Source: Gemmatimonadales bacterium (GTDB taxonomy: Bacteria > Gemmatimonadota > Gemmatimonadetes > Gemmatimonadales > GWC2-71-9). From it: a stretch of DNA of 64,000 nucleotides. The notes under the pieces were generated by a model. It saw nothing but the letters and a program-made list of their open reading frames with translations. It was not told where the DNA came from and made no database searches. The stretch covers positions 16,084 through 80,083 of the forward strand of contig DATAHW010000089.1 of NCBI GenBank assembly GCA_036262935.1, written 5' to 3'. Below are positions 14,496-53,659 of the stretch, piece after piece. Made by a program: the position numbers and the translations under genes. Numbering within the stretch: position 1 is the first letter of the stretch; every line of letters starts with the position of its first letter.

Positions 14496-14501
14496 AGCGC
14501 C

Positions 14502-14666
14502 ATGGTCGAATACGCGCTCCTGCTCGCCAGCACCTCGTTCCGAACCTTCGCGACCGACGCGGAAACCTGGGCGGCCGGGCTGAACTGGCATGCGCTCGGC
14601 TATGCTCTCTTCGCGCTGGTAGCGCTTCGGATCGCCTTCTGGGCCTTTCGCACCTCGGACTACTGA
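14502..14666 (+). CDS. Small hydrophobic protein (54 aa), Flp-pilin-like EY motif at the N-terminus
   Basis: Below the ORF-track cutoff; my own translation is MVEYALLLASTSFRTFATDAETWAAGLNWHALGYALFALVALRIAFWAFRTSDY. It sits 6 nt after the enolase-family stop and ends 11 nt before the GH38 start. An in-frame TAG lies 3 codons upstream. Confidence 0.45.
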   Translation: MVEYALLLASTSFRTFATDAETWAAGLNWHALGYALFALVALRIAFWAFRTSDY

Positions 14667-14677
14667 GGCGCGAGGCG

Positions 14678-19502: not shown

Positions 19503-19883
19503 ATGCACGATTTGCCATCGCTTCCGTGCTACCCCTGTCCCCACCTGTCGTCCTGCTGCGCCTACGGTGTCACCCTGAGTGACGACGAGGCCGCCGCGAT
19601 CGCGCGCGCGCACGGCGACGGAATGGTCTACCGGACCCGCTGGGGCGAGTGGCGCACGCGGGTGCGTGGCCGTCGCTGCGTATTCCTCAGGGACAACGTG
19701 TGCACCATCCACGCGCAGGCGTACTATCCCGCGGTCTGCCGCGGTTTCCCCTGGACCGACGCGGAAACCGGCGGCCCCTACGAGTACGACCGCACGATCT
19801 GTCCGGAGTTCATCGTGCGCCCGGAGCTGGTGCAGCTTGGCGGCGCCGTGGCGCGGCCGGCACGACCCGGCGGCGATCTGTGA
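19503..19883 (+). CDS. CxxCxxCC (YkgJ-like) putative zinc/iron-chelating protein
   Basis: N-terminal CYPCPHLSSCC cluster plus later C residues (RRCVFL, CTIH, AVCRGFP). The stop overlaps the next start (GTGA). Confidence 0.7.
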   Translation: MHDLPSLPCYPCPHLSSCCAYGVTLSDDEAAAIARAHGDGMVYRTRWGEWRTRVRGRRCVFLRDNVCTIHAQAYYPAVCRGFPWTDAETGGPYEYDRTICPEFIVRPELVQLGGAVARPARPGGDL

Positions 19884-21166
19884 TCCCAGGACTCCTTCGC
19901 GGCTGCGCGATTCCTCTCTCACCCGTCACCCTCGCGATCCTCATGGCCGCTCCCGCCACGGCGCAGACGCCCGATGCCGCGCTCGAGCACGCGCGCGCGC
20001 TGCTCCGGTCCACCCCGCTGATCGACGGCCACAACGATCTCCCCTGGGCGATCCGCACGGCGGAGGGAGCGCCGCGCGACGTCGCCGCGTACGATCTCCG
20101 GCAGCGGACGCCCGGGATGACCGATCTCGAACGACTGAAGGCGGGCCAGGTCGGAGCCCAGTTCTGGTCGATCTACGTCGACGGCGAGATGAAGGACAGC
20201 GGGTACGCGCGGGTGCAGCTCGAGGAGTTCGACATTGCCCGGCGCATGATCGCGCGCTACCCCGACCGGCTCTCGCTCGCGCTCGCGGCGGACGACATCG
20301 AGCGCGATGCGAAGCGGGGCCGGCTGGCGTCGCTCTTGGGCATGGAGGGCGGGCACGTCATCGAGAATTCGCTCGGCGCGCTCCGGTCCTACTACGCCCT
20401 TGGCGCGCGTTACATGACGCTCACCCACAACGTCACCACCGACTGGGCCGACGCGGCGCTCGACAGCGCGCGGCACGGCGGCCTCACCCCCTTCGGCCGC
20501 GAGGTGGTGCATGAGATGAACCGGCTGGGGATGCTGGTGGATCTGGCGCACGTCTCGCCGGGCACGATGAGCGACGCGCTCGACGCCACCGACGCGCCGG
20601 TCATCTTCTCCCACTCCGGTGCGCGCGCGCTGGTGGACCACCCCCGGAACGTGCCCGACTCGATTCTCGCACGGCTGCCGAAGAACGGCGGCGTGGTGAT
20701 GCTGACGTTCGTGCCGCAGTTCGTGTCCACCGAGTTCATGGCGTGGGAGCAGCAGAGCGACAGCGTGTGGAAGCAGCTCAAGGCCACCATCCCCGACAGC
20801 GCCGAGCGCCGGCGGCAGCACGACGCCTGGGAGGCCGGCCATGCCGCCCCCAGCGCCACGCTCGCCCAGGTGGCCGATCATATCGAGCACGTGCGTGACG
20901 TGGCGGGGGTGGACCACGTCGGGATCGGGAGCGACTTCGACGGCATCGAGCACGTGCCGTTGGGACTGGAGGATGTCTCCCGGTTTCCGTTCCTCTTCGC
21001 CGAGCTCATCCGGCGCGGCTGGAGCGATACCGATCTGAAGAAGCTCGCGGGCAGGAATCTGCTCCGCGTGATGCACCAGGCCGAGGCCACCGCCGCCCGT
21101 CTGCAGCGCGAGCGCCAGCCCTCGACCCGGACCATCGAGGAGCTGGACGGCCCCCCGCGGAGCTGA
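19880..21166 (+). CDS. Membrane (renal-type) dipeptidase, peptidase family M19
   Basis: Contains IDGHNDLPW, GMEGGH, RYMTLTHN, DLAHVS, FSHSGA and GIGSDFDG. In-frame GTG 19880 gives a signal-like N-terminus. Confidence 0.9.
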   Translation: MIPGLLRGCAIPLSPVTLAILMAAPATAQTPDAALEHARALLRSTPLIDGHNDLPWAIRTAEGAPRDVAAYDLRQRTPGMTDLERLKAGQVGAQFWSIYVDGEMKDSGYARVQLEEFDIARRMIARYPDRLSLALAADDIERDAKRGRLASLLGMEGGHVIENSLGALRSYYALGARYMTLTHNVTTDWADAALDSARHGGLTPFGREVVHEMNRLGMLVDLAHVSPGTMSDALDATDAPVIFSHSGARALVDHPRNVPDSILARLPKNGGVVMLTFVPQFVSTEFMAWEQQSDSVWKQLKATIPDSAERRRQHDAWEAGHAAPSATLAQVADHIEHVRDVAGVDHVGIGSDFDGIEHVPLGLEDVSRFPFLFAELIRRGWSDTDLKKLAGRNLLRVMHQAEATAARLQRERQPSTRTIEELDGPPRS

Positions 21167-21191
21167 CGTGCCGGACGCTCGCCGACAGCTG

Positions 21192-21285
21192 ACGGCACTG
21201 TCATCCCGAGCGGAGCGAGGGATCTTGCCCGGCCGAGTTCGGACTGCGGAACAGTAGATCGCTCCGCTCGGGATGACAGTGCCGT
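21192..21285. repeat. Perfect 27-bp inverted repeat (acggcactgtcatcccgagcggagcga / tcgctccgctcgggatgacagtgccgt) with a 40-nt spacer
   Basis: Arms at 21192-21218 and 21259-21285 are exact reverse complements. It lies between convergent genes (dipeptidase, SURF1), so it may act as a bidirectional terminator or REP-like element. Confidence 0.85.
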
Positions 21286-21296
21286 TCACCCGCGAC

Positions 21297-21338
21297 CGCT
21301 CACCTCTCACCTCTCACCTCTCACCTCTCACCGCTCAC
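21297..21338. repeat. Heptamer tandem repeat c(g/t)ctcac x6
   Basis: Read directly as cgctcac ctctcac ctctcac ctctcac ctctcac cgctcac. It overlaps the SURF1 stop codon (21328-21330). Confidence 0.9.
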
Positions 21339-22035
21339 CCCTACTCCCCACTCCCCCCACCACCAGCACCGCAAACCCCACCACCATCCCCGCGAAGAGA
21401 AACCACTGGATCGCGTAGCTCAGATGCGGCCCCTCGTCGAGCGGCGCCGGCGCGAGCCGGCGGGGAAACGAAGGCAGCGCGCTGTCCGGGCTCTGCTGGA
21501 TGTAGACCGGCAGTACGTCGTACGGCAGCCGTTCGCGCAGGGCGGCCAGGTCGAGCCGGCGCCAGGTCGTGCGTCCGCCGTGCTCGATCGGCGCCCCGCC
21601 GGCCGGCGGGACCGGCAGCGCGACCCCGCGCACCACCAACTCGCCCGGCTCCTGCAGCCCGTCGAGGTCCACCGTGACGGCGTCCGGCGACGGAACGAAG
21701 CCGCGTTCGACCAGCACCGCCGGCCCCTTGTCACCCAGCAGCAGCGGGGTCACGATCAGCACTCCCGGTGTCCCCTCCAGCACGTTGCCCCTGAGGACGA
21801 CATCCCGCCCCCGGTCGTAGCGCCCGCGGGCCACCACGCGGCGCTGCCCCAGCGACTCCGGGTGCTGCGTGGCCGCGGTGAGGGTGACTTCGGGTGCCAG
21901 GCGGCCGGCCATCGTGGCCGCGTTCGCCGCGCGGCGCTGGTGCAATCGGTCGAGCTGCCACACGCCGAGCCGGGCGAATCCGGCGGCGACCAGCAGCATG
22001 ACGAAGATCAGCAGGCGGCGTGCGGTGGGTGACAT
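21328..22035 (-). CDS. SURF1/Shy1-family cytochrome oxidase assembly protein
   Basis: N-terminal TM plus GVWQLDRLHQRR, C-terminal GPHLSYAIQWF plus a second TM; a typical SURF1 layout. Confidence 0.85.
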   Translation of the reverse strand: MSPTARRLLIFVMLLVAAGFARLGVWQLDRLHQRRAANAATMAGRLAPEVTLTAATQHPESLGQRRVVARGRYDRGRDVVLRGNVLEGTPGVLIVTPLLLGDKGPAVLVERGFVPSPDAVTVDLDGLQEPGELVVRGVALPVPPAGGAPIEHGGRTTWRRLDLAALRERLPYDVLPVYIQQSPDSALPSFPRRLAPAPLDEGPHLSYAIQWFLFAGMVVGFAVLVVGGVGSRGER

Positions 22036-22167
22036 CGCTGTTCAGGATAGAGGACGGTCGGAGCGCCCGGCCGAGCCCCGGGGGAAGCTCGGCGCGGTCC
22101 GGCTCTTGCGCGGGGCGGGGAAGCTACATTCACAGGCGACCGCAACTTAACCACGGCGAGGTAGAAC

Positions 22168-22773
22168 ATGCGGACCCTACGGCGCGGCCTGACCGCCGCG
22201 GCTGCCGCGATGCTGCTCCTCGGAGGCCTGGCCGGCGCGCAGGAGGCGCCCCCGGGCCTGGTCGAGGTGCGGAGCTCTGAACGGCACGGCTTCTGGGGCG
22301 CGCTCGGCGTGGGCGCGGGCGGCGAGGCGTTCGACCTCCGAGACGGCGCCGGCTACAGCGGCGATCTCTACAAGCCCACCGTGTCGCTCCGGCTCGGCGG
22401 CACGCCCAGCCGCTATCTCCGCCTCGGCGGGGAGGTACTCGGCTGGATCAACGACCAGGGCCGCCGCACCGAATCGCTCACCAGCGTACTCTTCATCACC
22501 CAGTTCTATCCCGCGCCCGCTGCCGGCCTCTATCTCAAGGGCGGGCTCGGCCTGGGCCGGAACGAGGTGAGCTTCGACCCTGGTTTCGGCGTGGGTGACA
22601 CCGGGTTCGCCGGTCTTCTCGGCGCCGGCTGGGAAATCCGGGTGGGCCGGCGGCTGTACCTCAATCCGGCCGCGGACCTGGTCGAGCACCGCTATACCGG
22701 CCGCGACGGGGCCGGCTACCGTGAGCGGCTGCTCAACTTCGGACTCGGCGTCCTCTTCCAGTCCGGGGGCTGA
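22168..22773 (+). CDS. Small outer-membrane beta-barrel protein (OmpA-beta-barrel/OmpW-like size)
   Basis: Signal peptide LGGLAGAQ. Alternating hydrophobic, G/Y-rich strands (GFWGALGVGAGG, LYLKGGLGLG, GLLGAGWEIRVG). Confidence 0.7.
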   Translation: MRTLRRGLTAAAAAMLLLGGLAGAQEAPPGLVEVRSSERHGFWGALGVGAGGEAFDLRDGAGYSGDLYKPTVSLRLGGTPSRYLRLGGEVLGWINDQGRRTESLTSVLFITQFYPAPAAGLYLKGGLGLGRNEVSFDPGFGVGDTGFAGLLGAGWEIRVGRRLYLNPAADLVEHRYTGRDGAGYRERLLNFGLGVLFQSGG

Positions 22774-22818
22774 CTTCGTATTGTTTTGGACCCCGAATTC
22801 CACATCGCAGGTGGCGCC

Positions 22819-23538
22819 ATGAGAGAGTTCGCTCGCGTTGTCGGTCTGGCCACGGCGCTCGCGCTCCCGGGCCTGTGGGGCTGCGGCGGCGATCTCACGC
22901 TCCCCGAGTCCACCGGGGCTGGGCTCGCGCTCGCGGTCGTCCAGGGCAACGGCCAGCAGGGGACGGTCGGGCAGCCGCTCCCGAACCCCGTCGTCGTGCT
23001 GGTCCGCAGCGACGCCGGGCAGCCGATCGCCAACCGGCAGGTGGAGTTTGCGCCTGCGGAGGGCCAGGCGGCCAGCTTCGATCCGGACACCGCTGTCACC
23101 GACTCGAGGGGGGAGGCGGTCACCAAGTGGGTCCTGGGGACCGCTCCGGGCGTCTACACCGCGGAGGCACGCGTCCTGGCCCAGGGAGACGCGCCGCCGC
23201 CGGTGCCACTCCAGGCCGCGGCCGTGGCGGGCACCCCCGACACTATCCGGCCGGTGAGCCACACCGGCCAGCCCGGCCAGCCAAATCAGACGCTGCCCGA
23301 GCCGCTCGTCGTTATGGTGCTCGATCGATTCGGCAACCCGGTCGCCGGCGCCGAAGTGGCCTGGAGCGTCGTGGCCGGCGGAGGCCAGGTGAGCGCGGAC
23401 CGGGTGGCCACGGCGACGGACGGCACCTCCAGCGTCACTTGGACACTGGGCGCGGGCATCGGACTCCAGCGGGTCACGGCCAATGTGGGTGGCACCTCGG
23501 GCTCCCCGGTCACCTTCACCGCCGTGGTTCTCTTCTGA
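22819..23538 (+). CDS. Ig-like (Big_1/invasin-type) repeat lipoprotein 1
   Basis: MREFARVVGLATALALPGLWGC lipobox followed by GGDLTLP. Two repeats of the type VVQGNGQQGTVGQPLPNPVVVLV..D..G.P. Confidence 0.8.
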   Translation: MREFARVVGLATALALPGLWGCGGDLTLPESTGAGLALAVVQGNGQQGTVGQPLPNPVVVLVRSDAGQPIANRQVEFAPAEGQAASFDPDTAVTDSRGEAVTKWVLGTAPGVYTAEARVLAQGDAPPPVPLQAAAVAGTPDTIRPVSHTGQPGQPNQTLPEPLVVMVLDRFGNPVAGAEVAWSVVAGGGQVSADRVATATDGTSSVTWTLGAGIGLQRVTANVGGTSGSPVTFTAVVLF

Positions 23539-23610
23539 GCGAGGGTGTGGCGGCGGAGGCGCAACACCCGCGGGCGGAGGGCCAGCCAAGCGCTTGATGC
23601 TCAATCACCT

Positions 23611-26226
23611 ATGACGGGGCGTCGCGCCTCTCACCGGGCACATATCCTGCTTCATCCACGGCTTTCCTCTACCCGACATCCTGTGACCACCACCCGGCGT
23701 CGCCTGGCGTACTCGCTCTCCTTCGGACTCGCCGCGGCCTCGTCGGCCTGCGGCGGCGACGGCCTCGTGCTGCCCAACGAGTCGCGTCCGGCGTCCATCA
23801 GCGTCGTGAGCGGCGACGGTCAGTCCGCCGCCGCGGGAGCGGCGTTGGGCCAGCCGCTGGTGGTGAGTGTGGTGGACGCGCTCGAGCGCCCGGTCCAGGG
23901 CCAGACGGTGGCGTTCACGGTCGACGCGGGCGGCGGAACGGTGGCGCCCGCCACCGCATCGACTGACGCCGACGGGCTTGCCTCCGCGAACTGGACCCTG
24001 GGAACCGGAGCGGGCACGCAGAGCGTGAAGGCGCAGGTGCAGGCCGCGGGGCTCCCCGCGCCGCTCGTCGCCGGGTTCACCGCCACCGCGACATCCGGGA
24101 CCGGCGCCATCCTCGAGCCCGTCAGCGGCGACAATCAAACGGCTCCGGTCAAGTCCGCGCTCGCGGATTCGCTCGTGGTGCGCGTGACCGACGCGCTCCA
24201 GAACCCGGTGGCCGGCGTCGAGGTGCAGTGGTCGGTGGATGGCGGCGGCTCCATCAGCCCGGTGACGGTGACCACCGGCGCCGACGGTCTGGCCGCGGCG
24301 GAGCGGGTGCTCGGCAGCGCTGCCGGGACCCAGACGGCCCAGGCCGCGGCGACCGGGCTCGCGCCGGTGACGTTCACCCACACCGCGGTCGCCGCCAATC
24401 CCACCGTGCTGCGCCTCGTCTCGGGCGACGGACAGACCGGCTCCGTGGGCAACCCGCTCGCCGAGCCCGTGGTGGTGCGTCTCGAAGACGAAAATGGGAA
24501 CGGCGTGGGCGACAAGTCCGTCACCTTCGTGGCCGGACCGGGCGCGGGCAGCACCGATCCGGTGAATGCCACGACCGATCCCAACGGCTTCGCCTCCAGC
24601 GTCTGGACCCTCGGGTCGAGCCTCGGCGGGAAGACGCTGACGGCCATCTTCTCGGGTCTGCCGCCCGTGGCCTTCACCGCCACCGCGGTCGCCGCGACGC
24701 CCACGCAGCTCGCCTTCACCCGGCCCCCGCAGACCACGGCGGCCGGGGCCAGCTTCAGCCCGTCCATCCAGGTCACCGTGCAGGACGCCGCTGGTAACAC
24801 CGTCACCAGCGCCAACGACGCAGTCACGCTGGCCATCGGCAGCAATCCGGCGGGCGGCACCCTTTCCGGGACGGTTACGGTCAACGCGGTGAACGGCGTC
24901 GCGTCCTTCGGAAACGTCTCGATCGACCAGGTGGGCTCCGGCTACACGCTGACCGCGTCCGCCGCGGGGCTCGCCGGCGCCACGAGCCCGGCGTTCGACA
25001 TCGTGCCCACGCAGGTGAATACGATCATCGTGATCACCAGCGACACGCCCGACCCATCGACCATCGGCGTGCCGTTTACGGTCACCTGGAACCTGAACTC
25101 GTCCGGCACCGCGCCGATCACCGGCAACGTCACGGTGACGGTCAACGGAACCGCCGACACCTGCAGCGCGCCCGCCGCGCTGGGCGCCGGAAGTTGTGAT
25201 CTGACCATCACCCTCAACGGCTCGCACCGCCTCACCGCCACCTTCCCGGGCGACGCGAACTACAAGAGCTCGACCGACATCGACGCGCACCAGGTGAAGG
25301 GGACGACGAGCACGACGCTCGCGTCATCGGTGAACCCTTCGACCGTGGGCCAGAGCATCACGCTGACCGCGCATGTCGCGCCCAGCGGCGGGAGCACCGG
25401 GAGCCCCGGCGGGCAGGTGCAGTTCATGGAGGGGGCCACGCTGCTCGGGACCAGAAGCGTGAACGGAGCGGGGGACGCGGCGCTGGACATCAGCTCCCTG
25501 GGGGAGGGACTCCATTCGATCACCGCGGCCTACCAGGGCTCGACCACGTTTGAGGCCAGCACATCGGCGGCGGTCGATCAGCAGGTGAACGCGGCTCCGA
25601 ACGTGCCGCCGACCGCCGTGGACGATGCCACCGGGTACTCCGTGCTCGAGGATGGAACGCTGAACGCGGGTACGAGCGTGCTGCAGAACGATTCCGACAA
25701 CGATGGGCCTTCGCCGCTCGTGGCGCGCAATGCCAGCGACCCGGCGAATGGCACGGTCGCACTCAACAGCGATGGGACGTTCACCTACACTCCCGACCCT
25801 GATTTCAACGGCACCGATACCTTCACCTACGAGGCGTTCGACGGAGCGGCCGCATCGACCGCCACCGTGACGATCACCGTCACGCCCGTCAACGACGCCC
25901 CGAGCTTCAACTCGGGCGGCAACGTCACCCAGAGCGACGCGGCGGGCCAGTTCGATCAGCCGTGGGCCACAGCTCTGAGCGCCGGTCCCACCAACGAGAG
26001 CGGGCAGTCGTTGAGCTTCGTCACGACGCTGGTCAATCCGTTGAACGCGTTGCTGTTTGCTCAGCAGCCAAGCGTGGACCCGACGGGCCGGCTCACGTTC
26101 ACCGCCGCCGCGCTCGCTTCGGGCACCGTGGATGTCCAGGTCCACATCGTGGACGACGGCGGCACCGCGAACGGCGGCGTCGACGCCAGCGGCGACCAGC
26201 CGTTCACGATCACTCTCACGCCTTAG
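23611..26226 (+). CDS. Large Ig-like repeat lipoprotein 2 with a C-terminal cadherin-like (VNDAP) module
   Basis: Lipobox ASSAC followed by GGDGLVLP. Contains many VSGDGQ..G..L..PLVV.V.D..GNPV repeats, Cys-pair Ig repeats (TCSAPAALGAGSCDLTIT), then TAVDD..Y.V.ED..L and VNDAPSF. Alternative start GTG 23683. Confidence 0.85.
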   Translation: MTGRRASHRAHILLHPRLSSTRHPVTTTRRRLAYSLSFGLAAASSACGGDGLVLPNESRPASISVVSGDGQSAAAGAALGQPLVVSVVDALERPVQGQTVAFTVDAGGGTVAPATASTDADGLASANWTLGTGAGTQSVKAQVQAAGLPAPLVAGFTATATSGTGAILEPVSGDNQTAPVKSALADSLVVRVTDALQNPVAGVEVQWSVDGGGSISPVTVTTGADGLAAAERVLGSAAGTQTAQAAATGLAPVTFTHTAVAANPTVLRLVSGDGQTGSVGNPLAEPVVVRLEDENGNGVGDKSVTFVAGPGAGSTDPVNATTDPNGFASSVWTLGSSLGGKTLTAIFSGLPPVAFTATAVAATPTQLAFTRPPQTTAAGASFSPSIQVTVQDAAGNTVTSANDAVTLAIGSNPAGGTLSGTVTVNAVNGVASFGNVSIDQVGSGYTLTASAAGLAGATSPAFDIVPTQVNTIIVITSDTPDPSTIGVPFTVTWNLNSSGTAPITGNVTVTVNGTADTCSAPAALGAGSCDLTITLNGSHRLTATFPGDANYKSSTDIDAHQVKGTTSTTLASSVNPSTVGQSITLTAHVAPSGGSTGSPGGQVQFMEGATLLGTRSVNGAGDAALDISSLGEGLHSITAAYQGSTTFEASTSAAVDQQVNAAPNVPPTAVDDATGYSVLEDGTLNAGTSVLQNDSDNDGPSPLVARNASDPANGTVALNSDGTFTYTPDPDFNGTDTFTYEAFDGAAASTATVTITVTPVNDAPSFNSGGNVTQSDAAGQFDQPWATALSAGPTNESGQSLSFVTTLVNPLNALLFAQQPSVDPTGRLTFTAAALASGTVDVQVHIVDDGGTANGGVDASGDQPFTITLTP

Positions 26227-26340
26227 CCGAAGCGGCTTCGCGGCCGCTCCTGTGACCCATCTCATCGCCCGACTTCCCCGGCTGGTGTAGCTTTCCGCTC
26301 GCTCAGTCCGCGCACCCCGTCATCCGATCCGCCGAGTCCT

Positions 26341-29154
26341 GTGCCGACCATTCGAATCGCCCTTCGCCTCCTCCCCGCGGTGGGTCTCCTGCTCAGTTGC
26401 GGCGGAGGCGATCTCGTGCTCCCCTCCGAAGGCGAGCCCGCCGCCATCACGATCGTTCAGGGCGACGCCCAGTCCGGCCGCGTCGGCAACACGCTGGCCG
26501 AGCCGGTGGTCGCGCGAGTGACCGACTCCCAGGGCCGGCCGGTGGCCGGGATCCCGGTGGCCTTCGCATTCACGGGCGGGGTGGCCGCCACCGTGGCCCC
26601 CGATACCGCGATGACTGACGCCGACGGCCGGGCTCCCTTCCAGATCCTCCTCGGCCCCCAAGTGGGTTCGGGGAGCGCCGAAGTGCGCGTGAGCGGCTCC
26701 GCGGGGAGTGGCGCACTCGCCGCGCCGGTCCAGTTCACCGCGCTTCCAGCCAATGCGAACGAGCTGGTGCCCGTCTCCGGCGACAGCCAGTCGGCCCGGG
26801 TCGGCGGGGCGCTGGCGGACCCGCTGGTGGTGCAGGTGACCGACGCGTTCGGCAACCCGATCGCGGGGGTGGACGTCGCCTGGACCGCGGTCGATGGGGG
26901 CAGCGTGAGTCAGGCGACGGTGCAGACCGGAGACGACGGGCTCGCCTCGGTCGAGGTGACGCTCGGGCCCAACGCCGGCATCCAGCACACGACGGCGAGC
27001 GCGCCCGGGCTGGCCGGATCACCGGTCACCTTCACCGCCACCGCGCTCCCCGGCGCCGCCACCACACTCGAGGTCGTATCCGGCGACGGGCAGACCGCGC
27101 TGGTGGGGACGCCCGTCCCCGATCTGCTCGTGGTCCGCGCTCGGGATGCGGGCGGGAACCCCGTCGCGGGACTTGGCGTCACCTGGCTGGTCACGGCGGG
27201 CCGCGGGAGTGTCGCGCCGCAGAACGGCACCACCGGCCAGGACGGCCAGGCGTCCACGAGTTGGACGCTGGGGCCGGAGCCCGGGGCGAACACCGTCGCC
27301 GCGGTAATCTCCGGCGTGGGCACCGTCGAGTTTACCGCGACCGGCAATCCCGGCGCGCCGCCGGCGCTTTCGATCGAGACCCAGCCGCCCGCGACGGCCG
27401 TGCGTGGCCTGCCGCTGAGCCGCGCGCCCGCCGTTCAGTTGCGCGAGCCGGACGGGTCCGCGCGCGCACAGGCGGGTGTCCGGGTCAGCGTCAAGCTCGC
27501 CACCGCGGGTGGGACACTCCGCGGCACCCTGACACGAACCACCGGGCCGAGCGGCGGCGCCGAGTTCGGCGGCCTCGTCATCGAGGGGCCGCCTGGTACG
27601 TACGCGCTTGCCTTCTCGGCCCCGGGCTACTCCGGTGCCACCTCCGCGGGCATCGCGCTTGCCCGCGCGCCCAGCACCATCGAGATCACGTCCGACAAGC
27701 CCGACCCCTCCGCGCCCGGCGAGGCGGTGCAGGTGGCGTTCCGCGTGCAGTCCGCGGGCGGCGCGCCGGATGGCACGGTGCAGGTAACGGCTGACGACGG
27801 CTCGAGCTGCAGCGCGAACGTGGGCGCCGGTGCGTGCGCGCTGACGCTCACCGCCGTGGGCTCGCGCACGATCACCGCGACCTACTCCGGCAGCGCCGAC
27901 TTCGAGGGGGCGACGGACACCGAGTCGCACGAGGTCCAGGCGGCGCCGCCTCCCGTGCCGAGCGCGACGAGGTCTACGGTGGCCGTGGGCAACACCACGC
28001 TTCCGCTCGGTGGGAGCACCCAGGTCATCGTGACTGTCCGCGACGCGGCCGGCGGCCCCCTGCAAGGCGTGGCGGTGAGCGTCACCGGTTCGGGCGCGGC
28101 TAACCCCGTCACCCCGGCCTCCGTCACAACCGACGCGGGCGGTGCCGCGCGGTTCACCTTCGACGCCGCGGTCGCGGGCACGATGACGCTTACGGCCGTG
28201 GCGGGCGGCGTGACGCTCGGAGCGCAGCCATCGGTAACCGTTCAGCGCGCCGAGACAAAGACGAGCATTACCGCGGACGCGCCGGATCCTTCCGCGCCAG
28301 GCGAGGTGGTGACGGTGGCCTTCAGCGTCACCAGCACCGCGGGAACGCCGACCGGCACCGTCAAGATCACCGCGAGCGGTGGCGATGAGACCTGCTCCGG
28401 GAGCCTGGCCCAGGGGAGCTGCGCGCTCACGCTCACGACCGCCGGCAACAGGACCCTCACCGCGACCTACTCGGGCGATGACAACTTCTCGCCGAGCTCC
28501 GGCGTCGCGCCCCACATCGTCGGCTCGCCGAGCCTCTCGATCCAGAGGCAGCCGTCGAGCACCGCGGTCAGCGGAATCCCCTTCCACGATCAGCCGGAGC
28601 TGCAGCTCGAGGACGCAAACGGACACAAGCTCGGCCAGGCCGGCGTGGCCATCACGGCCGCACTCGCACCCGGCGCCGGTGGCTCGCTCTCGGGGACGCT
28701 CACTCGACTGACGGACAAGGACGGCCGAGCCAAGTTCGACGACCTTGCCATTACCGGCCCGGAGGGCTCGTACGCCATCGAGTTCAGCGCGGCCGGCTTC
28801 GCGTCCGTGACCTCGAGCACGATCACGCTGCAGCCCGCGCCGCCTTCCCCGACCACCACTACGATCACGTCCGACCTGCCTGATCCATCGGTTGCCGGGG
28901 TGCCGATCCCAGTGAGCTTCACCGTCACGAGTCCCGCGGGCACCCCGGCCGGCAGCGTGGTCGTCACCGCGAGCGGCGGCGAGGAGACGTGCTCCGCCAG
29001 CGTGGCCGAGGGAGGCTGCACACTCACGCTCACCGTGGCCGGGTCCAGGACCCTCACCGCCTCATTCAGCGGCGCGGGCTTCGCCGGCAGTTCGGATGAT
29101 GAGGATCATTTCGTCGTCGGGCTGGGTGGCTCGTCCGTCGCATCCGGACCGTGA
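26341..29154 (+). CDS. Large Ig-like repeat lipoprotein 3
   Basis: GTG start. Lipobox LLLSC followed by GGGDLVLP. At least three different Ig-like repeat types recur, including three Cys-pair repeats (ETCS....G.C.LTLT). Confidence 0.85.
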   Translation: MPTIRIALRLLPAVGLLLSCGGGDLVLPSEGEPAAITIVQGDAQSGRVGNTLAEPVVARVTDSQGRPVAGIPVAFAFTGGVAATVAPDTAMTDADGRAPFQILLGPQVGSGSAEVRVSGSAGSGALAAPVQFTALPANANELVPVSGDSQSARVGGALADPLVVQVTDAFGNPIAGVDVAWTAVDGGSVSQATVQTGDDGLASVEVTLGPNAGIQHTTASAPGLAGSPVTFTATALPGAATTLEVVSGDGQTALVGTPVPDLLVVRARDAGGNPVAGLGVTWLVTAGRGSVAPQNGTTGQDGQASTSWTLGPEPGANTVAAVISGVGTVEFTATGNPGAPPALSIETQPPATAVRGLPLSRAPAVQLREPDGSARAQAGVRVSVKLATAGGTLRGTLTRTTGPSGGAEFGGLVIEGPPGTYALAFSAPGYSGATSAGIALARAPSTIEITSDKPDPSAPGEAVQVAFRVQSAGGAPDGTVQVTADDGSSCSANVGAGACALTLTAVGSRTITATYSGSADFEGATDTESHEVQAAPPPVPSATRSTVAVGNTTLPLGGSTQVIVTVRDAAGGPLQGVAVSVTGSGAANPVTPASVTTDAGGAARFTFDAAVAGTMTLTAVAGGVTLGAQPSVTVQRAETKTSITADAPDPSAPGEVVTVAFSVTSTAGTPTGTVKITASGGDETCSGSLAQGSCALTLTTAGNRTLTATYSGDDNFSPSSGVAPHIVGSPSLSIQRQPSSTAVSGIPFHDQPELQLEDANGHKLGQAGVAITAALAPGAGGSLSGTLTRLTDKDGRAKFDDLAITGPEGSYAIEFSAAGFASVTSSTITLQPAPPSPTTTTITSDLPDPSVAGVPIPVSFTVTSPAGTPAGSVVVTASGGEETCSASVAEGGCTLTLTVAGSRTLTASFSGAGFAGSSDDEDHFVVGLGGSSVASGP

Positions 29155-29257
29155 GAGGCGTCGAAGTGCAATTTCTTTCATCGTCCCGAGGCGCTGACGG
29201 CTCGCGGATGTGATCCGAGTCCTAGCCGAGGCGGCATCCGCGCGGTAGCGTCAAGCC

Positions 29258-30016
29258 ATGCCCGTGCCCAGCTCATGGTTCTGCCTCGCGTTTGCCGCGT
29301 CGCTCGTCGCGTGCGGTGGCGACCTCACGCTTCCCGCGACCCCGTCCGGCGGTGACGGGTCGCCCACCGGTCCGGAGCCGCCGTCGGGCGCCGCAGTGTC
29401 GGCGGGTGACGATCGTTACTCCACGAGGGAGGGCGACGACCACACGCTCTCGATTCCATCACCGGGCGTGCTCGGGAACGACCTGGTCGAGGGCGTGCCC
29501 GGCACCGGACTCCAGGCCATCCTGCTCGAGGCCCCCGAGCACGGCCGTCTCGCGCTCCACGCCGACGGCTCGCTCGACTACACCCCCGATGCCGATTGGT
29601 TCGGCAGCGAGCGCTTCAGCTATCGCGCGGCGCTTGGCGCCACCGAGTCCGCGCCGGCGGAAGTCGTGATCGAGGTGCAGAGCGTGAACGACGCGCCACG
29701 GTTTACTCCCGGCCCCGACCAGCGGGCCGAGCACAAGGCGGATGAGCAGCAGGTCGAACACTGGGCTGGCGACATCGCCCCCGGCCCGGCCAACGAGTCG
29801 GACCAGCAGGTGAGCTTCGTGGTCGAGGTGTTGTCGGGGAACGACGTCCTGAAGGGGACGCCCACGATCAGCCCGTCGGGCACGCTTACCTATCGGCCGT
29901 CGCACCACGAGGGGAGTGCTACCATCGGGGTGCGTCTCCAGGACGACGGGGGTACGGCCAACGACGGCACCGACACCAGCCCGATCCACGTGCTGACGAT
30001 ATCGGTCGACGAGTAG
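29258..30016 (+). CDS. Cadherin-like (VNDAP) lipoprotein 4
   Basis: Lipobox SLVAC followed by GGDLTLP. The GNDL...DGSLDYTPD..W.G.D.F.Y, VNDAPRF and DDGGTANDGTD modules parallel the C-terminus of lipoprotein 2. Confidence 0.8.
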   Translation: MPVPSSWFCLAFAASLVACGGDLTLPATPSGGDGSPTGPEPPSGAAVSAGDDRYSTREGDDHTLSIPSPGVLGNDLVEGVPGTGLQAILLEAPEHGRLALHADGSLDYTPDADWFGSERFSYRAALGATESAPAEVVIEVQSVNDAPRFTPGPDQRAEHKADEQQVEHWAGDIAPGPANESDQQVSFVVEVLSGNDVLKGTPTISPSGTLTYRPSHHEGSATIGVRLQDDGGTANDGTDTSPIHVLTISVDE

Positions 30017-30117
30017 CGCGCGTTCGTCCGTTCGATGGCCGGGTCCTTTCGGTCTCCGGTGCATCGCGATACAATCCGGGTTTCCTCGGCCACTCGATCC
30101 CTCCTCGCCGTGGTCCC

Positions 30118-32031
30118 ATGATGCACCTGCTCCGTCGCCCCCTTGTATCGATCGCGCTGCTGGCCCTCGTGGCCTGCGGCGGGGGAGACCTCACGCTCCC
30201 GAACGAGGGTCAGCCGGCCAACGTGTCGGTGGTCTCGGGCGACGGCCAGACGGGGACGATTCTCGAGCCGCTCCCCGACTCCCTCGTCGTCCAGGTGACC
30301 GACCGCTTCGGGAACCCGGTGCCGGGGGTCGAGGTCACCTGGGCCGCGGAAGGCGGAGGCGACGTCCAGCCGGCCACGGCCACGACCGGAAACGACGGGC
30401 GTGCGGCCACCCAGCGCATCCTCGGCAGCCAGCCGGGGAGCTACGGCACCACCGCCCTCGTCACGCTGCTGCCCGAGAACGTCGCATCGTTCACCAACAC
30501 CGCCGTAGCAGCCAAGCTGGTGCTGGTGACGCAGCCCGGAGCGACGGCCACTTCGGGCGCGGTGATCGACCCGCAGCCGGTGCTGCAGCTCCAGGACGCG
30601 AGCGGCAATCCCGCGGCGCGGCAGGGCGTCGCGGTCACCGTGCAGATCGCGTCGGGCGAAGGGACGCTTCGCGGCACCACCACCCAGACCAGCGATGCCA
30701 CGGGGCAGGTCGCCTTCACCGACATCGCCATCGTCGGGGCGCCCGGGGCGCGCACACTCATCTTCGCCGCCTCCGGGTATGCCTCCGCCATCAGCACGAC
30801 GGTCTCCCTCGGCGTGGGTGCGCCGGCATCGGTCGTGCCTGCCGCCGGCGATGCGCAGAGCGCACCCGCCGGGACGGCGGTGCCAGTGGCGCCTGCCGTG
30901 GTGGTGCGCGATGCGGCCGGTACGCCCGTGGCGGGCCTGCAAGTCGCCTTCGTGGTAGCATCGGGCGGGGGGAGCGTCACCGGCGGCGACGCGGTCACCG
31001 ACGCCGACGGCGTCGCCACGGTCGGGCGCTGGACTCTTGGCGGCAGCGTGGGCGGCAACACGCTTCGTGCCACCGTGGCGGCGGACAACGTGAACGGCAA
31101 TCCGGTAGTCTTCACCGCGACTGCGGTCCCCGGGGCGCCGAGCGCGGACAAGAGCTCCGTCTCCGCTTCGCCCGGAACGATTTCGGCGTCGGCCGGATCG
31201 GACGGCAGCGACATAACCGTCATCGTGCGCGACAGCCGAGGCAACCCGCTCCCCGCACAGGGCGTCACGCTCGACGCCACGGGCGACGGGGTGAGCCTGA
31301 CCCAGCCCGGGCCGACGGACGCCTCCGGCACCAGCACCGGTCGCTTCAGCGCGACCACGGCGGGGGACCACACGATCTCGGCTTCAGTGGGCGGGACGAC
31401 GATCGGCAGGGCCACCGTCACCGTTGTTCCGGGAGCGCCCGTGGCCTCCGCGAGCGCCGCGGCCGTGCCGGCCGGCACGGCAGGCACGCCGACGCAGGTC
31501 GAAGTGACACTGAAGGACCAGTTCGGCAATCCGGTGCCCGGCGCGGCGGGCCAGATCACCGTGGCGGTGTCGGGCGCCAACCCTGTCGCCGGCGTCGACA
31601 TCGAGGACCGCGGCGGCGGCGCCTATCGCGCCGGCTATCGGCCGGTGCACATCGGTGTCGATCAGGTGGACGTGCGCGTCGGCGGGCAGGCCGTGCCGGG
31701 GAGCCCGTTCGCGAGCGCCGTGTCGCCGGGCGCGCCGGACCCCGGGCGGACCACCGCCGACGTCCCGGACGGCACCTTCGGGCAGACCCTGGAGTTCGTG
31801 GTGCACGTCGCTGACAGCGAGGGAAATCCGGTCGGGCACGGCGGAGACCAGGTGGCGGTGACGGTCCAGGGCGTGACCGACGGCGCCCGGCCAGTGCAGG
31901 ATGCGGGCGACGGCACCTACCACGCCACCTGGCGCCCATTCGTGTTCGGCACCTTCCAGGTGCAGATCACCTTGAACGGCGTCCCCATCGCCGGCAGCCC
32001 GTTCACCACCAGGATCGACTTCTTCCGGTAG
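30118..32031 (+). CDS. Ig-like repeat lipoprotein 5 with C-terminal filamin-type repeats
   Basis: Lipobox ALVAC followed by GGGDLTLP. Big_1-like repeats are followed by two GSPF-containing repeats (VPGSPFASAV, IAGSPFTTRI) typical of filamin/ABP280 folds. Confidence 0.85.
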   Translation: MMHLLRRPLVSIALLALVACGGGDLTLPNEGQPANVSVVSGDGQTGTILEPLPDSLVVQVTDRFGNPVPGVEVTWAAEGGGDVQPATATTGNDGRAATQRILGSQPGSYGTTALVTLLPENVASFTNTAVAAKLVLVTQPGATATSGAVIDPQPVLQLQDASGNPAARQGVAVTVQIASGEGTLRGTTTQTSDATGQVAFTDIAIVGAPGARTLIFAASGYASAISTTVSLGVGAPASVVPAAGDAQSAPAGTAVPVAPAVVVRDAAGTPVAGLQVAFVVASGGGSVTGGDAVTDADGVATVGRWTLGGSVGGNTLRATVAADNVNGNPVVFTATAVPGAPSADKSSVSASPGTISASAGSDGSDITVIVRDSRGNPLPAQGVTLDATGDGVSLTQPGPTDASGTSTGRFSATTAGDHTISASVGGTTIGRATVTVVPGAPVASASAAAVPAGTAGTPTQVEVTLKDQFGNPVPGAAGQITVAVSGANPVAGVDIEDRGGGAYRAGYRPVHIGVDQVDVRVGGQAVPGSPFASAVSPGAPDPGRTTADVPDGTFGQTLEFVVHVADSEGNPVGHGGDQVAVTVQGVTDGARPVQDAGDGTYHATWRPFVFGTFQVQITLNGVPIAGSPFTTRIDFFR

Positions 32032-32047
32032 GGCGCGGCGGACGCGG

Positions 32048-32077
32048 TTGATTTCCCCCCTCCACGGCGGCTATTTT
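32048..32077 (+). promoter_or_regulatory. Sigma-70-like promoter candidate for the tRNA pair
   Basis: TTGATT (32048-53), an 18-nt spacer, then TATTTT (32072-77), 10 nt before the tRNA-Leu 5' end. The AT-rich hexamers stand out in GC-rich DNA. Confidence 0.4.
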
Positions 32078-32087
32078 GCTGCGCTGC

Positions 32088-32169
32088 GCCCTGGTGGTGA
32101 AACTGGTAGACACGCTATCTTGAGGGGGTAGTGCCGAAAGGCGTCGCGGTTCGAATCCGCGCCAGGGCA
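32088..32169 (+). tRNA. tRNA-Leu (anticodon GAG)
   Basis: Hand-folded. Acceptor gccctgg/ccagggc, anticodon stem ctatc/ggtag with loop ttGAGgg, long variable arm tgccgaaaggcgt, T arm cgcgg-ttcgaat-ccgcg, discriminator A. No encoded CCA. Confidence 0.9.
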
Positions 32170-32212: not shown

Positions 32213-32284
32213 GCCACTGTAGCTCAGTGGTAGAGCACTCGATTCGTAATCGAGCGGTCGTCGGTTCAAGTCCGACCAGTGGCT
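32213..32284 (+). tRNA. tRNA-Thr (anticodon CGT)
   Basis: Hand-folded. Acceptor gccactg/cagtggc, D arm gctc-agtggta-gagc, anticodon stem ctcga/tcgag with loop ttCGTaa, T arm gtcgg-ttcaagt-ccgac. Confidence 0.9.
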
Positions 32285-32307
32285 CTCGCTCCGCCCCGGC
32301 TCCACAC

Positions 32308-32435: not shown

Positions 32436-35400
32436 GTGACCGTGCCGGACGATAGCCCGGAGCCCGCCATCGAGCTTCCCGCCGCCGCCGCTCCGCCGAA
32501 CGGTGGAGTGATGGGCCGGCTCATCCGGCAGAAGGACTGGTCGGCCACACCGCTCGGGCCTATCCACGCATGGCCTCAGAGCCTCCGCACGGCCGTGGGC
32601 ATCTGCACCGAATCGCGTTACCCGATGGCGATCTGGTGGGGTCCCGGCATCGTTCAGCTCTACAACGACGGCTACATCCCGGTGCTCGGAGCCAAACACC
32701 CGCACGCGCTCGGGCAGAACGGGCGCGAGTGCTGGGCCGAGATCTGGGACCTGGTCGGCCCGTTCTACACTCAGGTCATGGTGCGGGGCGAGCCCACCTG
32801 GTCGGACGACCTGCTGCTCCCCATGGATCGCTACGGGTACGTCGAGGAGACGTACTTCACCTTCTCCTACAGCCCCATTCGTGACGAGTCGGGCGGGGTC
32901 GGCGGCCTGCTCATCACCTGCGCCGAAACGACCCCGCGCGTAGTCGGCGAGCGTCGACTCGGTACGCTTCGCGACCTGGGTGCGCGCACCGGCGACGCGC
33001 GGACCGTGCGCGCCGCGTGCGATCTCGCGATGGGTATTCTGGCGCAGAACACGGCCGATGTGCCGGCCGCCGCGCTGTATCTGCTCGACCCGGCCATGCC
33101 GATCGCTAGACTTGCGGGGCGAGCCGGCCCCCCGGAAGCGCTCCCGCTTGCCGCCGCGGCCCTGGATGTGTCCGCCGCCTCGCCGTCGCCGCTCGCCCGG
33201 GTGTTCGAGACCGGCCAGGCCGCGGTGCTGCACCCCGAGGGCTCGGCCGAGCTGATCGTGCTGCCGGTCGCGGGCGCTGCCCGCACGACTCCGGTCGGCG
33301 TCCTGCTCGCGGCGGCCAACTCCCGCCGCCGCCTGGACGACTCGTATCGCGGATTCTTCGAGCTCATCGCGGGTCACATTGCGAGCGCCATCGCCAACGC
33401 GCTGGCCTACGAGGAGGCGGAACGGCGCGCCGAGGTGCTGGCCGAGCTGGATCGGGCCAAGACGGCATTCTTCAGCAATGTGAGCCACGAGTTCCGGACG
33501 CCGCTCACGCTGCTGCTCGGTCCGCTGGAAGACGCCCTGCTCGACACCGGTGAGCCGCTGCCCGCGCGGCAGCGCGATCGGGTGGAGGTTGCGCACCGCA
33601 ACAGCCTGCGGCTGTTGCGGCTGGTGAACACGCTGCTGGACGTGGCCCGGCTCGAGGCGGGCCGGATGGAGGCGGCGTTCGAGCCGGTGGACCTCGCCGC
33701 CCTGACGGCCGACCTCGCCAGCGGCTTCCGCTCCGCCGCGGAGCGGACGGGGCTCCGCTTCACGGTGGAGTGCGCGCCGCTGGCCGAGGCGGTGTTCGTC
33801 GATCGGGATATGTGGGAAAAGATCGTTCTCAACCTGCTCAGCAACGCGCTCAAGTTCACGGTCCGGGGCGAAATCGGGGTACGGCTGACGCCGCTCGATG
33901 GATCGGTGCGGCTCGAGGTGCGCGACACCGGCGTCGGGATCCCCGCGGAAGAGCTGCCGCGCATCTTCGAGCGGTTCCACCGCGTGCGTGAGGCGCGTGG
34001 TCGATCGCTCGAAGGGACCGGCATCGGACTCTCCCTGGTGCAGGACCTGGTGAAGCTGCACGGCGGCGCCATCGAGGTCGCCAGCGTCCCGTCCCAGGGG
34101 AGCACGTTCCGGGTCATCCTGCCCACGGGGCGTGCGCACCTGCCCGCGGACCAGATCGGCGAGCCGGGTGGGCGTTCGGCGGGCGCCATCGGGCCGGCCG
34201 CCTACGTCGAGGAGGCGCTCCGGTGGCTCCCGAGCGACGCGCCGGCCTCGGGGCGACAGGGCGCCCGCATCGTGCTGGCGGACGACAACGCCGACATGCG
34301 CGAGTACGTCGTGCGCCTCCTCGGCGAGGGATGGCGGGTCGAGGCCGTGGTGGACGGACGCGAGGCGCTGGAGGCGGTCCGCCGCGAGCTGCCGGACCTG
34401 GTCATCTCCGACGTCATGATGCCGGGGCTGGATGGCTTTGCGCTGCTCGCCGCGCTACGGGCGGACACCAGCACCCGGTCGCTCCCGGTGATCCTGCTCT
34501 CGGCACGCGCGGGCGAGGAGGCGCGCGTCGAGGGCCTGCGCGCCGGCGCCGACGACTACCTCGTCAAACCCTTCACCGCGCGTGAGCTGCTCGCCCGGGT
34601 CGAGTCCATGCTCACGCTGGCCAGGGTGCGCCGCGAGTCGGAGGCGGCGGTCCGCGCGAGCGAGGAGCGGTACCGGGCATTCGTCGAGCTGACCTCCGAT
34701 GCGGTGTGGCGGATCGAGCTCGAAGGGCCGGTGCCGGTGGCGCAGTCGGCGGACGAGCAGATCGACCGGATCTATCAGCATGCCTGGCTCGCCGAGTGCA
34801 ACGATGCCATGGCGCACATGTACGGCGTGGCCTCCGCCGCCGAGCTGACCGGAGCGCGCCTGGGCGAGCTGCTGCCTCGCACCGATCCGGCCAACCTGGC
34901 CTACCTGCACGCCTTCATCGCCAACAGCTACCGTCTCATCGACGCCGAGTCCAACGAGGTCGGGCTCGACGGCCGCCCGCGCTACTTCGTGAACAACCTG
35001 TTCGGCATCGTGGAGGATGGCGGCCTCGTCCGCGTCTGGGGCTCGCAGCGGGACATCACTGAGCGCCGCCGGACCATGGAGCGGCTGCAACGGGCCCAGC
35101 GGATGGAGTCGGTCGGCAAGCTGGCGGGCGGGATCGCGCACGAGGTGAACAACATGATGTCCGTCGTGCTCGGCTGCTCCGAGTTCGTGCTCCGCCGCCC
35201 CGACCTCGACCCCGCGGTGCGCGCCGACGTCGAGCAGGTGCGGCAGGCCGCCGAGCGCTCGGCCGCCATCACGGCCCAGCTCCTCGCGTTCGGCCGCCGG
35301 CAGATGCTGCAGCCGGTGCCGCTCGATCTCAACGCCGTCGTGCGCGAGCTGGAGCCGGTCCTCCGCCGGACGCTGGGGGAGAGCGCGACCGTCGAGCTCC

Positions 35401-53652: not shown

Positions 53653-53659
53653 GGGGGCC

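Follow-up and report, generated by a model that had tools for sequence, protein, structure and literature searches.

We analyzed a stretch of 64,000 nucleotides (hereafter the window) from a Gemmatimonadales bacterium (assembly GCA_036262935.1, contig DATAHW010000089.1, positions 16,084 to 80,083 of the forward strand), which belongs to an uncultured lineage of soil Gemmatimonadales known from metagenome-assembled genomes (MAGs) and metagenomes. Between a gene for a predicted small outer-membrane beta-barrel protein and a pair of tRNA genes, the window carries an array of five genes, P2 to P6, whose predicted products are lipoproteins built from immunoglobulin (Ig)-like domains. Directly after the lipobox Cys, all five proteins share a near-invariant peptide, C-G-G-(x)-D-L-(T/V)-L-P, which we refer to as the tether and which had escaped the original prediction, a short note made from the letters of this DNA. 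Comparison with related loci indicates that the array is old, vertically inherited and functional, that it evolves faster than its neighbors, and that it belongs to one uncultured Gemmatimonadales lineage. Our preferred reading, which we hold to be about an even call, is that the locus encodes clade-specific lipoproteins shaped as Ig-like rods, anchored in the outer membrane and probably serving as surface adhesins or a coat, that are sorted or docked through their shared tether. The genes of the array and their tethers are as follows.

22819-23538, plus strand: P2, lipoprotein of 239 aa, first gene of the array (open reading frame [ORF], Pfam, AlphaFold2 [AF2] model)
22882-22905, plus strand: P2 tether, CGGDLTLP, its Cys being the predicted lipidation site
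23683-26226, plus strand: P3, lipoprotein of 847 aa when started at GTG 23683 (ORF, Pfam)
23749-23775, plus strand: P3 tether, CGGDGLVLP
26341-29154, plus strand: P4, lipoprotein of 937 aa (ORF, Pfam)
26398-26424, plus strand: P4 tether, CGGGDLVLP
29258-30016, plus strand: P5, lipoprotein of 252 aa (ORF, Pfam)
29312-29335, plus strand: P5 tether, CGGDLTLP, followed by a linker and not by a Big_1 domain
30118-32031, plus strand: P6, lipoprotein of 637 aa, last gene of the array (ORF, Pfam)
30175-30201, plus strand: P6 tether, CGGGDLTLP

The original prediction had described a barrel gene and five consecutive lipoprotein genes on one strand, followed by tRNA genes, and this layout held, with all five genes intact. 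Its length for P3 (870 aa) agrees with a start at ATG 23611 (871 aa) but not with the 847 aa from GTG 23683, the start that a gene caller chose in L001, a metagenome contig identical to this one; the longest ORF, from GTG 23545, would give 893 aa, and the start of P3 is to this extent ambiguous. The spacers from barrel-P2 through P5-P6 measure 45, 72-144, 114, 103 and 101 nt, and 56 nt separate P6 from the first tRNA gene. All six ORFs have the composition of coding DNA (GC content at third codon positions 0.87-0.89).

The shared tether

Each of the five proteins begins with a signal peptide that ends in a lipobox Cys (LWGC in P2, SSAC in P3, LLSC in P4, and LVAC in both P5 and P6), as judged against the pattern [LVI][ASTVI][GAS]C at the end of an N-terminal signal peptide, and we predict that this Cys is lipidated. 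Two of the signals are atypical. The lipobox of P3 has Ser at -3, where its orthologues carry LAAC, LSAC or VLAC; and the n-region of P5 contains no Lys or Arg and has an additional Cys at residue 9 (MPVPSSWFCLAFAASLVAC). A longer start for P5 was excluded by an in-frame stop four codons 5' of its ATG (…SAR*RQA-MPVPSS), the three codons between them being non-start codons.

To our reading, the tether is a family-specific motif at one locus within the sequence examined. A six-frame scan of the whole window found the tether pattern in the five array genes and nowhere else. For comparison, we assembled 74 related loci (L-numbers below) by scanning a genome collection with the barrel as seed, a design that would miss arrays located elsewhere. 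A generic lipobox finder returned 96 putative lipoproteins from these loci; the tether was present in all 66 that lie downstream of the barrel and in none of the 30 found elsewhere in the loci, six of which are in this window. Some 160-190 array members gave the consensus [L][A/L][A/G]-C-G-G-(x)-D-L-(V/T)-L-P-x-(E/D)-G-(E/Q)-P-A, which then runs into the start of the first Big_1 domain. Across 40 orthologues of P2, with a mean column identity of 62%, C22, D25, L26 and P29 never vary, and conservation at T27 and L28 is 90% or higher. In the AF2 model of P2, residues 1-30, the tether included, lie ahead of the first Ig domain with a predicted local distance difference test score (pLDDT) below 50. 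Conservation of a peptide outside the folded domain is what characterizes short linear motifs.

P5 is a natural control, since it retains the tether with no Big_1 domain behind it. Its orthologues in L014 and L016 have kept CGGDL[TA]LP while the linker that follows has diverged. This bears on a different explanation of the tether, namely that the genes are tandem duplicates of a single Big_1 lipoprotein and that the peptide has no specific function, having been kept by descent or gene conversion. Such a relic would explain why the tether runs into a homologous first Big_1 domain in four of the five and in almost every member of other arrays, and why the 25-nt stretch coding for the tether is the best-conserved DNA repeat among the paralogues (80-84% identity, family D8). 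Yet the paralogues are elsewhere only 60-74% identical in DNA and ~47% identical in protein (over the first 60 residues), with D, L, L and P near-invariant, and this near-invariance holds over orthologous arrays whose barrels are as little as 48% identical. The tether also lies outside the folded domain in the P2 model, P5 has kept it after losing Big_1 while its linker drifted, and synonymous differences between the copies speak against recent gene conversion. We consider a functionless relic unlikely.

A second, more specific proposal is that the tether is an undescribed sorting or docking signal of Gemmatimonadales lipoproteins, equivalent in function to the lipoprotein export signal (LES) of Bacteroidota but of a different chemistry, which would send the Ig-rod lipoproteins to the cell surface or to a common outer-membrane partner. 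We advance this tentatively and with more doubt than belief. We also considered the tether as a Bacteroidota O-glycosylation sequon, D-(S/T)-x, and rejected it because the tether reads D-L-(T/V).

A search of 1.84 billion representatives with a 60-column profile of the N-terminus returned, among its best 150 matches, mostly giant multi-Big_1 proteins that match only the Big_1 part of the profile. This Big_1 portion dominates the matches, so the search says little about where else the tether occurs. A single one of those 150, the 3797-aa multi-Big_1 protein P0250, has an N-terminus that resembles the tether (…LATVRCGGGGVTLPEEGLPTAITIMAGD); giant tether-bearing proteins thus exist.

Domains, conservation and history of the array

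The five lipoproteins contain about 27 beta-sandwich domains in total (2, 8, 9, 2 and 6 in P2 to P6), counted with hidden Markov models of the two P2 domains together with Pfam coordinates; the original prediction of 'dozens' was slightly generous. Every repeat type that it had named was recovered by Pfam. Big_1 occurs in P2, P3, P4 and P6 (E values 1e-17 to 1e-35). The Cys-pair Ig repeat is Big_3_5, found in P3 and P4 (E 1e-24 to 1e-28) with the C..C pair in four copies, the VNDAP modules of P3 and P5 are Big_9/Cadherin_5/Cadherin_4, and the GSPF repeats are Filamin, with two copies in P6 (E 2.8e-28). Pfam further gave a match to Invasin_D3 (E 1.7e-29) and weaker matches to CarboxypepD_reg (transthyretin-like) and MG4 among the lipoproteins. 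As had been predicted, no enzymatic domain was found in the five with Pfam or NCBIfam, and none of the six proteins has a family-level model in NCBIfam.

P2 consists of two Big_1 Ig domains (residues 32-134 and 135-239; Pfam Big_1 E 1.7e-18), both confidently folded in its AF2 model (mean pLDDT 87.9). The best PDB matches of this model, found with Foldseek, were intimin D0-D1 and D00-D0, FdeC, InvE, invasin and InvD (E 7e-11 to 4e-7), so that P2 resembles the passengers of adhesins. In P3, three Big_1 domains and one Ig-like domain are followed by two Big_3_5 domains, of which one has a Cys pair, then by a Big_9/cadherin-like domain (VNDAP) and, at the C-terminus, a Big_9-like domain; P4 has three Big_1 domains, Ig-like domains, three Big_3_5 domains, all with Cys pairs, and one CarboxypepD_reg-like sandwich. 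In P5 the tether gives way to a Pro/Gly/Thr-rich linker and then to two domains, the first Big_9/cadherin-like (VNDAP) and the second, at the C-terminus, Big_9-like. P5 repeats the C-terminal module of P3 as a protein in its own right, with 42% identity to the P3 C-terminus of relatives. P6 is made up of Big_1, Ig-like, Big_1 and Big_1/Invasin_D3 domains followed by the two Filamin copies (GSPF). The lipidated Cys aside, Cys residues in the mature parts are limited to the Big_3_5 pairs, which fits extracytoplasmic disulfides.

Arrays of this kind are a regular feature of the clade. Hundreds of metagenomic relatives exist for the barrel and for P2, and the few that are named are Gemmatimonadales or Gemmatimonadota MAG proteins; 73 of the 74 loci come from Gemmatimonadota MAGs, and the remaining one (L049) is labelled a Bacillota MAG. 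Wherever barrel identity is 48% or more (46 loci, L008-L053 and L059), two to six tether-bearing lipoprotein ORFs lie directly downstream of the barrel, and no tether-bearing ORF was found in any of the 74 loci whose barrel is more distant (<48%). The complete intervals (n=21) span 6.2-9.8 kb and hold three to six genes each. A P2-like gene of ~219 mature residues comes first in 20 of the 21, and in 16 the array closes with a gene bearing the filamin GSPF signature. The middle genes differ in number and domain make-up; P4, for example, is absent from L005 and L012, and P4 and P5 are missing in some relatives. A search of relatives for the same gene order, as the original prediction had proposed, thus finds the ends of the array conserved and its middle variable.

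The array is under purifying selection. Against the close relatives L008 and L009, the ratio of nonsynonymous to synonymous substitution rates (dN/dS) is 0.08-0.25 for P2-P6 and 0.06-0.10 for the barrel, and P3 gives 0.26 against L010. DNA identity between paralogues in the window is no higher than 60-84%, gene order is conserved and dN/dS lies at 0.08-0.26, so the array is old and no recent strain-specific duplication. The original prediction had named recent duplication with pseudogenised members as what would speak against it; this level of paralogue identity rejects recent tandem duplication or gene conversion, and no array member in the window is a pseudogene. Recent horizontal transfer was rejected as well, since the GC content of the array (0.70-0.735, in a window of 70-74%) equals that of its flanks and the array is found throughout the clade. 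Together, the presence of the array in all 46 loci and its purifying selection support the predicted dedicated multi-gene locus of non-enzymatic Ig-like-repeat lipoproteins.

Two further observations concern the array ORFs. Synonymous divergence (dS) from L008 is 0.14-0.30 for the lipoprotein genes, with P3 at the extreme, versus 0.07-0.11 for the CxxC, M19, SURF1 and barrel genes (positions 22819-32031 compared with 19503-22773, relatives L008 and L009); recombination with other strains at the locus could raise dS in this way. In the long-read MFD MAG loci L013, L015, L018 and L053, the array ORFs are broken into short pieces, with the flanking genes intact by similarity. These breaks are probably homopolymer or indel assembly errors in a repeat-rich and GC-rich region, more so than pseudogenes.

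The array sits in a conserved frame, whose elements in the window are these:

21328-22035, minus strand: SURF1-family gene, divergently oriented, which bounds the syntenic frame on its upstream side and lies outside the system
22168-22773, plus strand: small outer-membrane beta-barrel protein (OMP) of 201 aa with a Sec signal peptide (ORF and family membership)
22776-22785, plus strand: AT-rich -10-like element, TATTGTT at 22779-22785 (alignment of 19 barrel-P2 spacers)
32088-32169, plus strand: tRNA-Leu(GAG), downstream edge of the frame (Rfam)
32213-32285, plus strand: tRNA-Thr(CGT), downstream edge of the frame (Rfam)

The order CxxC gene, M19 dipeptidase gene, SURF1 gene (minus strand) and barrel gene is conserved in all loci, including those with no array. 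Six distant genomes (L054-L058 and L060), with barrels 32-42% identical, have the frame and lack the array. In four of them (L055, L056, L058 and L060) the tRNA-Leu(GAG)/tRNA-Thr(CGT) pair that follows every complete array lies directly behind the barrel, within ~50-135 nt, and in the other two (L054 and L057) the barrel-tRNA junction is filled by an unrelated 1045-aa gene on the other strand (L054:10640-14220), which by the look of its sequence encodes a BNR/sortilin-type repeat protein. Because the same frame occurs with no array in these six genomes, the barrel evidently predates the array. The ancestral order is SURF1(-)-barrel-tRNA-Leu-tRNA-Thr, and the array was inserted, or expanded, exactly where barrel and tRNAs met. 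The adjacency of barrel and array then follows from the insertion point, that is, from history. The junction (22774-32087 in the window) looks like a recurrent insertion site, occupied by the array, by nothing or by the 1045-aa gene.

The original prediction had speculated that the barrel leads or partners the array. On this reading, extended here to the tether, the barrel would be a dedicated anchor, dock or export partner that is bound by the tether. Barrel and array do lie on the same strand, adjacent and 45 nt apart, in all 46 array-bearing loci, and the barrel is unusually conserved (~80% identity among relatives). Our scan for sigma-70 promoters and terminators returned no promoter and two weak terminator-like sites, fewer than chance would give, and no convincing terminator between barrel and P2. 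Against a partnership stand the SURF1-barrel pairs of the six array-less genomes, with tRNAs or an unrelated opposite-strand gene behind them, and the CxxC, M19 and SURF1 genes upstream, which are equally syntenic. With ~175 mature residues and ~8 strands, the barrel is also too small for a translocon. We regard a barrel-lipoprotein system as quite improbable, and the barrel is most likely a positional neighbor of the array and not one of its components.

The spacer between barrel and P2 points the same way. At a fixed distance between the barrel stop and P2, 14-15 of 19 loci (the L009-L047 equivalents) have a heptamer TAT[TGC][GC]T[AT], which in the window occurs at a background of 0.086 per kb per strand in a genome of ~72% GC. 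It is probably the -10 element of a promoter of the array's own, separate from the barrel, and gives no support to co-transcription of barrel and array. A canonical TTGACC-N17/18-TATACT promoter lies between barrel and tRNAs in L055, L056, L058 and L060. Other promoter-like sequences were seen in the P5-P6 spacer (TACAAT at ~30070) and just 5' of tRNA-Leu (TTGATT-N18-TATTTT, 32048-32079), and these are possible individual promoters.

The assignment of the barrel rests on family membership, not on a confident model. The window protein scores 27.0 bits against PF13505 (OMP_b-brl), below the cut-off of 28.7, whereas among 34 relatives 26 match the family at E <= 1e-3 (best 4.4e-11). Its AF2 model, built from a 20-sequence alignment, is strand-rich, with a pLDDT of 38 that makes it unusable for a fold search, and a barrel profile run against PDB sequences gave nothing meaningful (best E 0.25). 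The C-terminus reads ...GVLFQSGG (22750-22773; ...VLFQSGR in relatives), with the last aromatic residue four to five positions from the end, and is unlike the usual proteobacterial beta-signal with its terminal aromatic residue.

Elsewhere in the window, a 1268-aa hybrid sensor kinase/response-regulator gene (32436-36242) directly follows the two tRNA genes; L005 has a comparable multi-domain kinase in another place, upstream of its CxxC gene. A second envelope-related cluster (46258-54205, minus strand) encodes an OmpA-family protein (711 aa), a protein of 864 aa with a CarboxypepD_reg/SdrD_B-like domain, four short ORFs of 142-249 aa for which Pfam gave no match, and an ORF of 181 aa, and next to it lies an OmpA-domain lipoprotein-like gene (45399-46253, plus strand). 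Upstream of the array, GH38 alpha-mannosidase-like and heparinase II/III-like genes (13778-17320 and 4132-7887) occur alongside a gene for an SBP_bac_5 solute-binding protein; they form a glycan-utilisation context with no relation to the array. Rfam found three tRNAs in the window and no other match.

Location and role of the rods

We infer the outer-membrane or surface location of the lipoproteins, their adhesive function and the role of the tether from the features above. Each lipoprotein would be exported by Sec, lipidated at its lipobox Cys and carried to the outer membrane. There, the unstructured tether, in its longer form C-G-G-(x)-D-L-(T/V)-L-P-x-(E/D)-G-(E/Q)-P, would be recognized, as a short linear motif, by a sorting or docking partner that all the lipoproteins share, and rods of two to nine Ig domains (~8-35 nm) would project from the cell surface as adhesins or a coat, with cadherin-like, filamin-like and disulfide-bonded Big_3_5 modules at their distal parts. 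Rod lengths are estimates from typical domain size, nine domains corresponding to ~30-35 nm. Compared with relatives whose barrels are ~80% identical, the lipoproteins are 52-65% identical versus ~80% for the barrel and M19, and this faster divergence fits an exposed location. The variable gene content, the folds shared with adhesin passengers and the disulfide-bonded Big_3_5 domains also suggest surface rods.

Several considerations weigh against this picture. For lipoproteins of diderm bacteria a periplasmic location is the default, and we know of no export route for surface lipoproteins in Gemmatimonadota. The tether does not resemble the acidic LES of Bacteroidota, and its conservation could stem from processing, shedding or contact with the first Ig domain. 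A ligand-binding tip domain, such as the C-type lectin of intimin and invasin, was not found in the five proteins.

The proteins might instead be rods that face the periplasm, with their anchor in the inner membrane or in the outer membrane's inner leaflet, where they would serve as spacers, scaffolds or macroglobulin-like binders and where the tether would be a determinant of Lol sorting or retention. This arrangement has the established default topology on its side, along with the weak Pfam matches to MG4 and the transthyretin-like CarboxypepD_reg, the precedent of E. coli, which has periplasmic MG-domain lipoproteins, and a regime of moderate purifying selection in which strong diversifying selection was not seen. 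It is harder to square with rods of eight to nine domains, whose inferred ~30-35 nm match or exceed the width of the periplasm, or with structural matches that are best for the passengers of surface adhesins. The presence of three to six genes across relatives and a divergence above that of the neighbors are usual for exposed proteins, and the known positions of Lol sorting are +2 to +4, whereas the conserved core here reaches +8/+9. Neither a thioester nor an A2M domain was found with Pfam or NCBIfam, which counts against macroglobulin-like binders and led us to reject a macroglobulin-type protease inhibitor. On balance we think a periplasmic orientation less likely, though a serious rival, and we retain surface-exposed rods as the preferred reading.

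Gemmatimonadota are abundant in soils, and to our knowledge almost nothing is known of their cell surface. The array is a conserved and selected set of predicted lipid-anchored Ig rods, which could bind the cell to particles, to polymers or to other cells, and its tether offers a concrete handle on lipoprotein sorting in the phylum. As far as we know, a post-Cys signal for surface export has so far been defined in Bacteroidota only. If the tether is such a signal, it would point to an unknown route of surface-lipoprotein export or anchoring in a little-studied phylum; if it is a family relic and the proteins are periplasmic, the array would be an ordinary lineage-specific family of paralogues.

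Comparison with known systems

The closest systems differ from the array in their domains, their anchors or their export signals. Inverse autotransporters (type Ve: intimin, invasin, FdeC, InvD and InvE) likewise have rods of Big_1 and Invasin_D3 domains and supplied the best Foldseek matches of P2. They are anchored by a barrel of their own, whereas the array proteins are predicted to be lipid-anchored and, by Pfam, have no 12-strand inverse autotransporter (IAT) barrel (PF11924), no LysM domain and no C-terminal lectin-like tip.

Repeat adhesins of type I secretion systems (T1SS; Bap/LapF/tandem-95, VCBS) share the Big_9/cadherin-like VNDAP modules of P3 and P5. The tandem-95 model NF012211 (tand_rpt_95) matched with E values of 2e-22 and 5e-15, at 78.8 and 55.4 bits, below its cut-off of 90, and adhes_GNV_Cterm gave 17 bits against a cut-off of 180; no RTX (HemolysinCabind) repeat was matched by Pfam and no full-length match to NF045619 or NF012211 was seen. 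Unlike these adhesins, the array proteins have neither RTX repeats nor a C-terminal T1SS signal, carry an N-terminal lipoprotein signal peptide and are much smaller. Pfam and NCBIfam found no type IX C-terminal domain (CTD; Por_Secre_tail/TIGR04183) in the five proteins.

Slam (type XI) resembles the locus in that a surface-lipoprotein gene adjoins the gene for an outer-membrane barrel that handles it as cargo. Slam itself is a 14-strand DUF560 barrel with a tetratricopeptide repeat (TPR) domain, and its cargo (TbpB, fHbp and HpuA) ends in an 8-strand barrel. The barrel of this locus is small, probably of the OMP_b-brl family, and predates the array, and neither DUF560 or TPR in the barrel nor a TbpB-type domain in the lipoproteins was matched by Pfam or NCBIfam. 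Identities as inverse autotransporter, T1SS adhesin, type IX cargo or Slam system were rejected for want of the IAT barrel, RTX, CTD and DUF560, respectively.

Bacteroidota belong, with Gemmatimonadota, to the Fibrobacteres-Chlorobi-Bacteroidetes (FCB) superphylum. Their LES is a short peptide directly after the +1 Cys, present on a subset of lipoproteins and sufficient for surface exposure; it reads K-(D/E)2, Q-A-(D/E)2 or is S-D-D-D-like at +2 to +6 and is defined by its net negative charge (PMC5080379). The tether is similar in being a short conserved post-Cys peptide that marks a subset of lipoproteins, but it fails the LES definition: at +2 to +6 it reads G-G-(G)-D-L, with one acidic residue and no leading Lys, Gln or Ser, and it has a hydrophobic/Pro core that extends to +8/+9. 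The LES marks a whole surface lipoproteome, whereas the tether marks one family at one locus in the sequence examined, and the SusC/D-type partner of the Bacteroidota setting is not present here.

The original prediction had found it unusual that Ig-repeat adhesins should be lipid-anchored, which overstates the case, since LigA/B/C of Leptospira are lipoproteins with 12-13 Ig-like domains that act as surface-exposed adhesins (PMC7821625). Like the array proteins, they have a lipobox, a short segment (the '0 segment' of Lig), a long tandem run of Ig-like domains and no enzymatic domain (PMC7821625). They differ in that the Lig domains are Big_2 (PF02368) and those of the array are Big_1, Big_3_5, Big_9 and Filamin, in that Lig proteins are encoded by single genes of a spirochaete pathogen and not by an array of three to six genes, and in that the C-G-G-x-D-L-x-L-P tether has not been described for Lig. 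Our literature search on Ig-like or surface lipoproteins of Gemmatimonadetes found nothing relevant. We conclude that the locus is known in kind, as lipid-anchored Ig-repeat surface proteins, and new in its multi-gene array with conserved order, its Big_1-based architecture and its family-specific tether.

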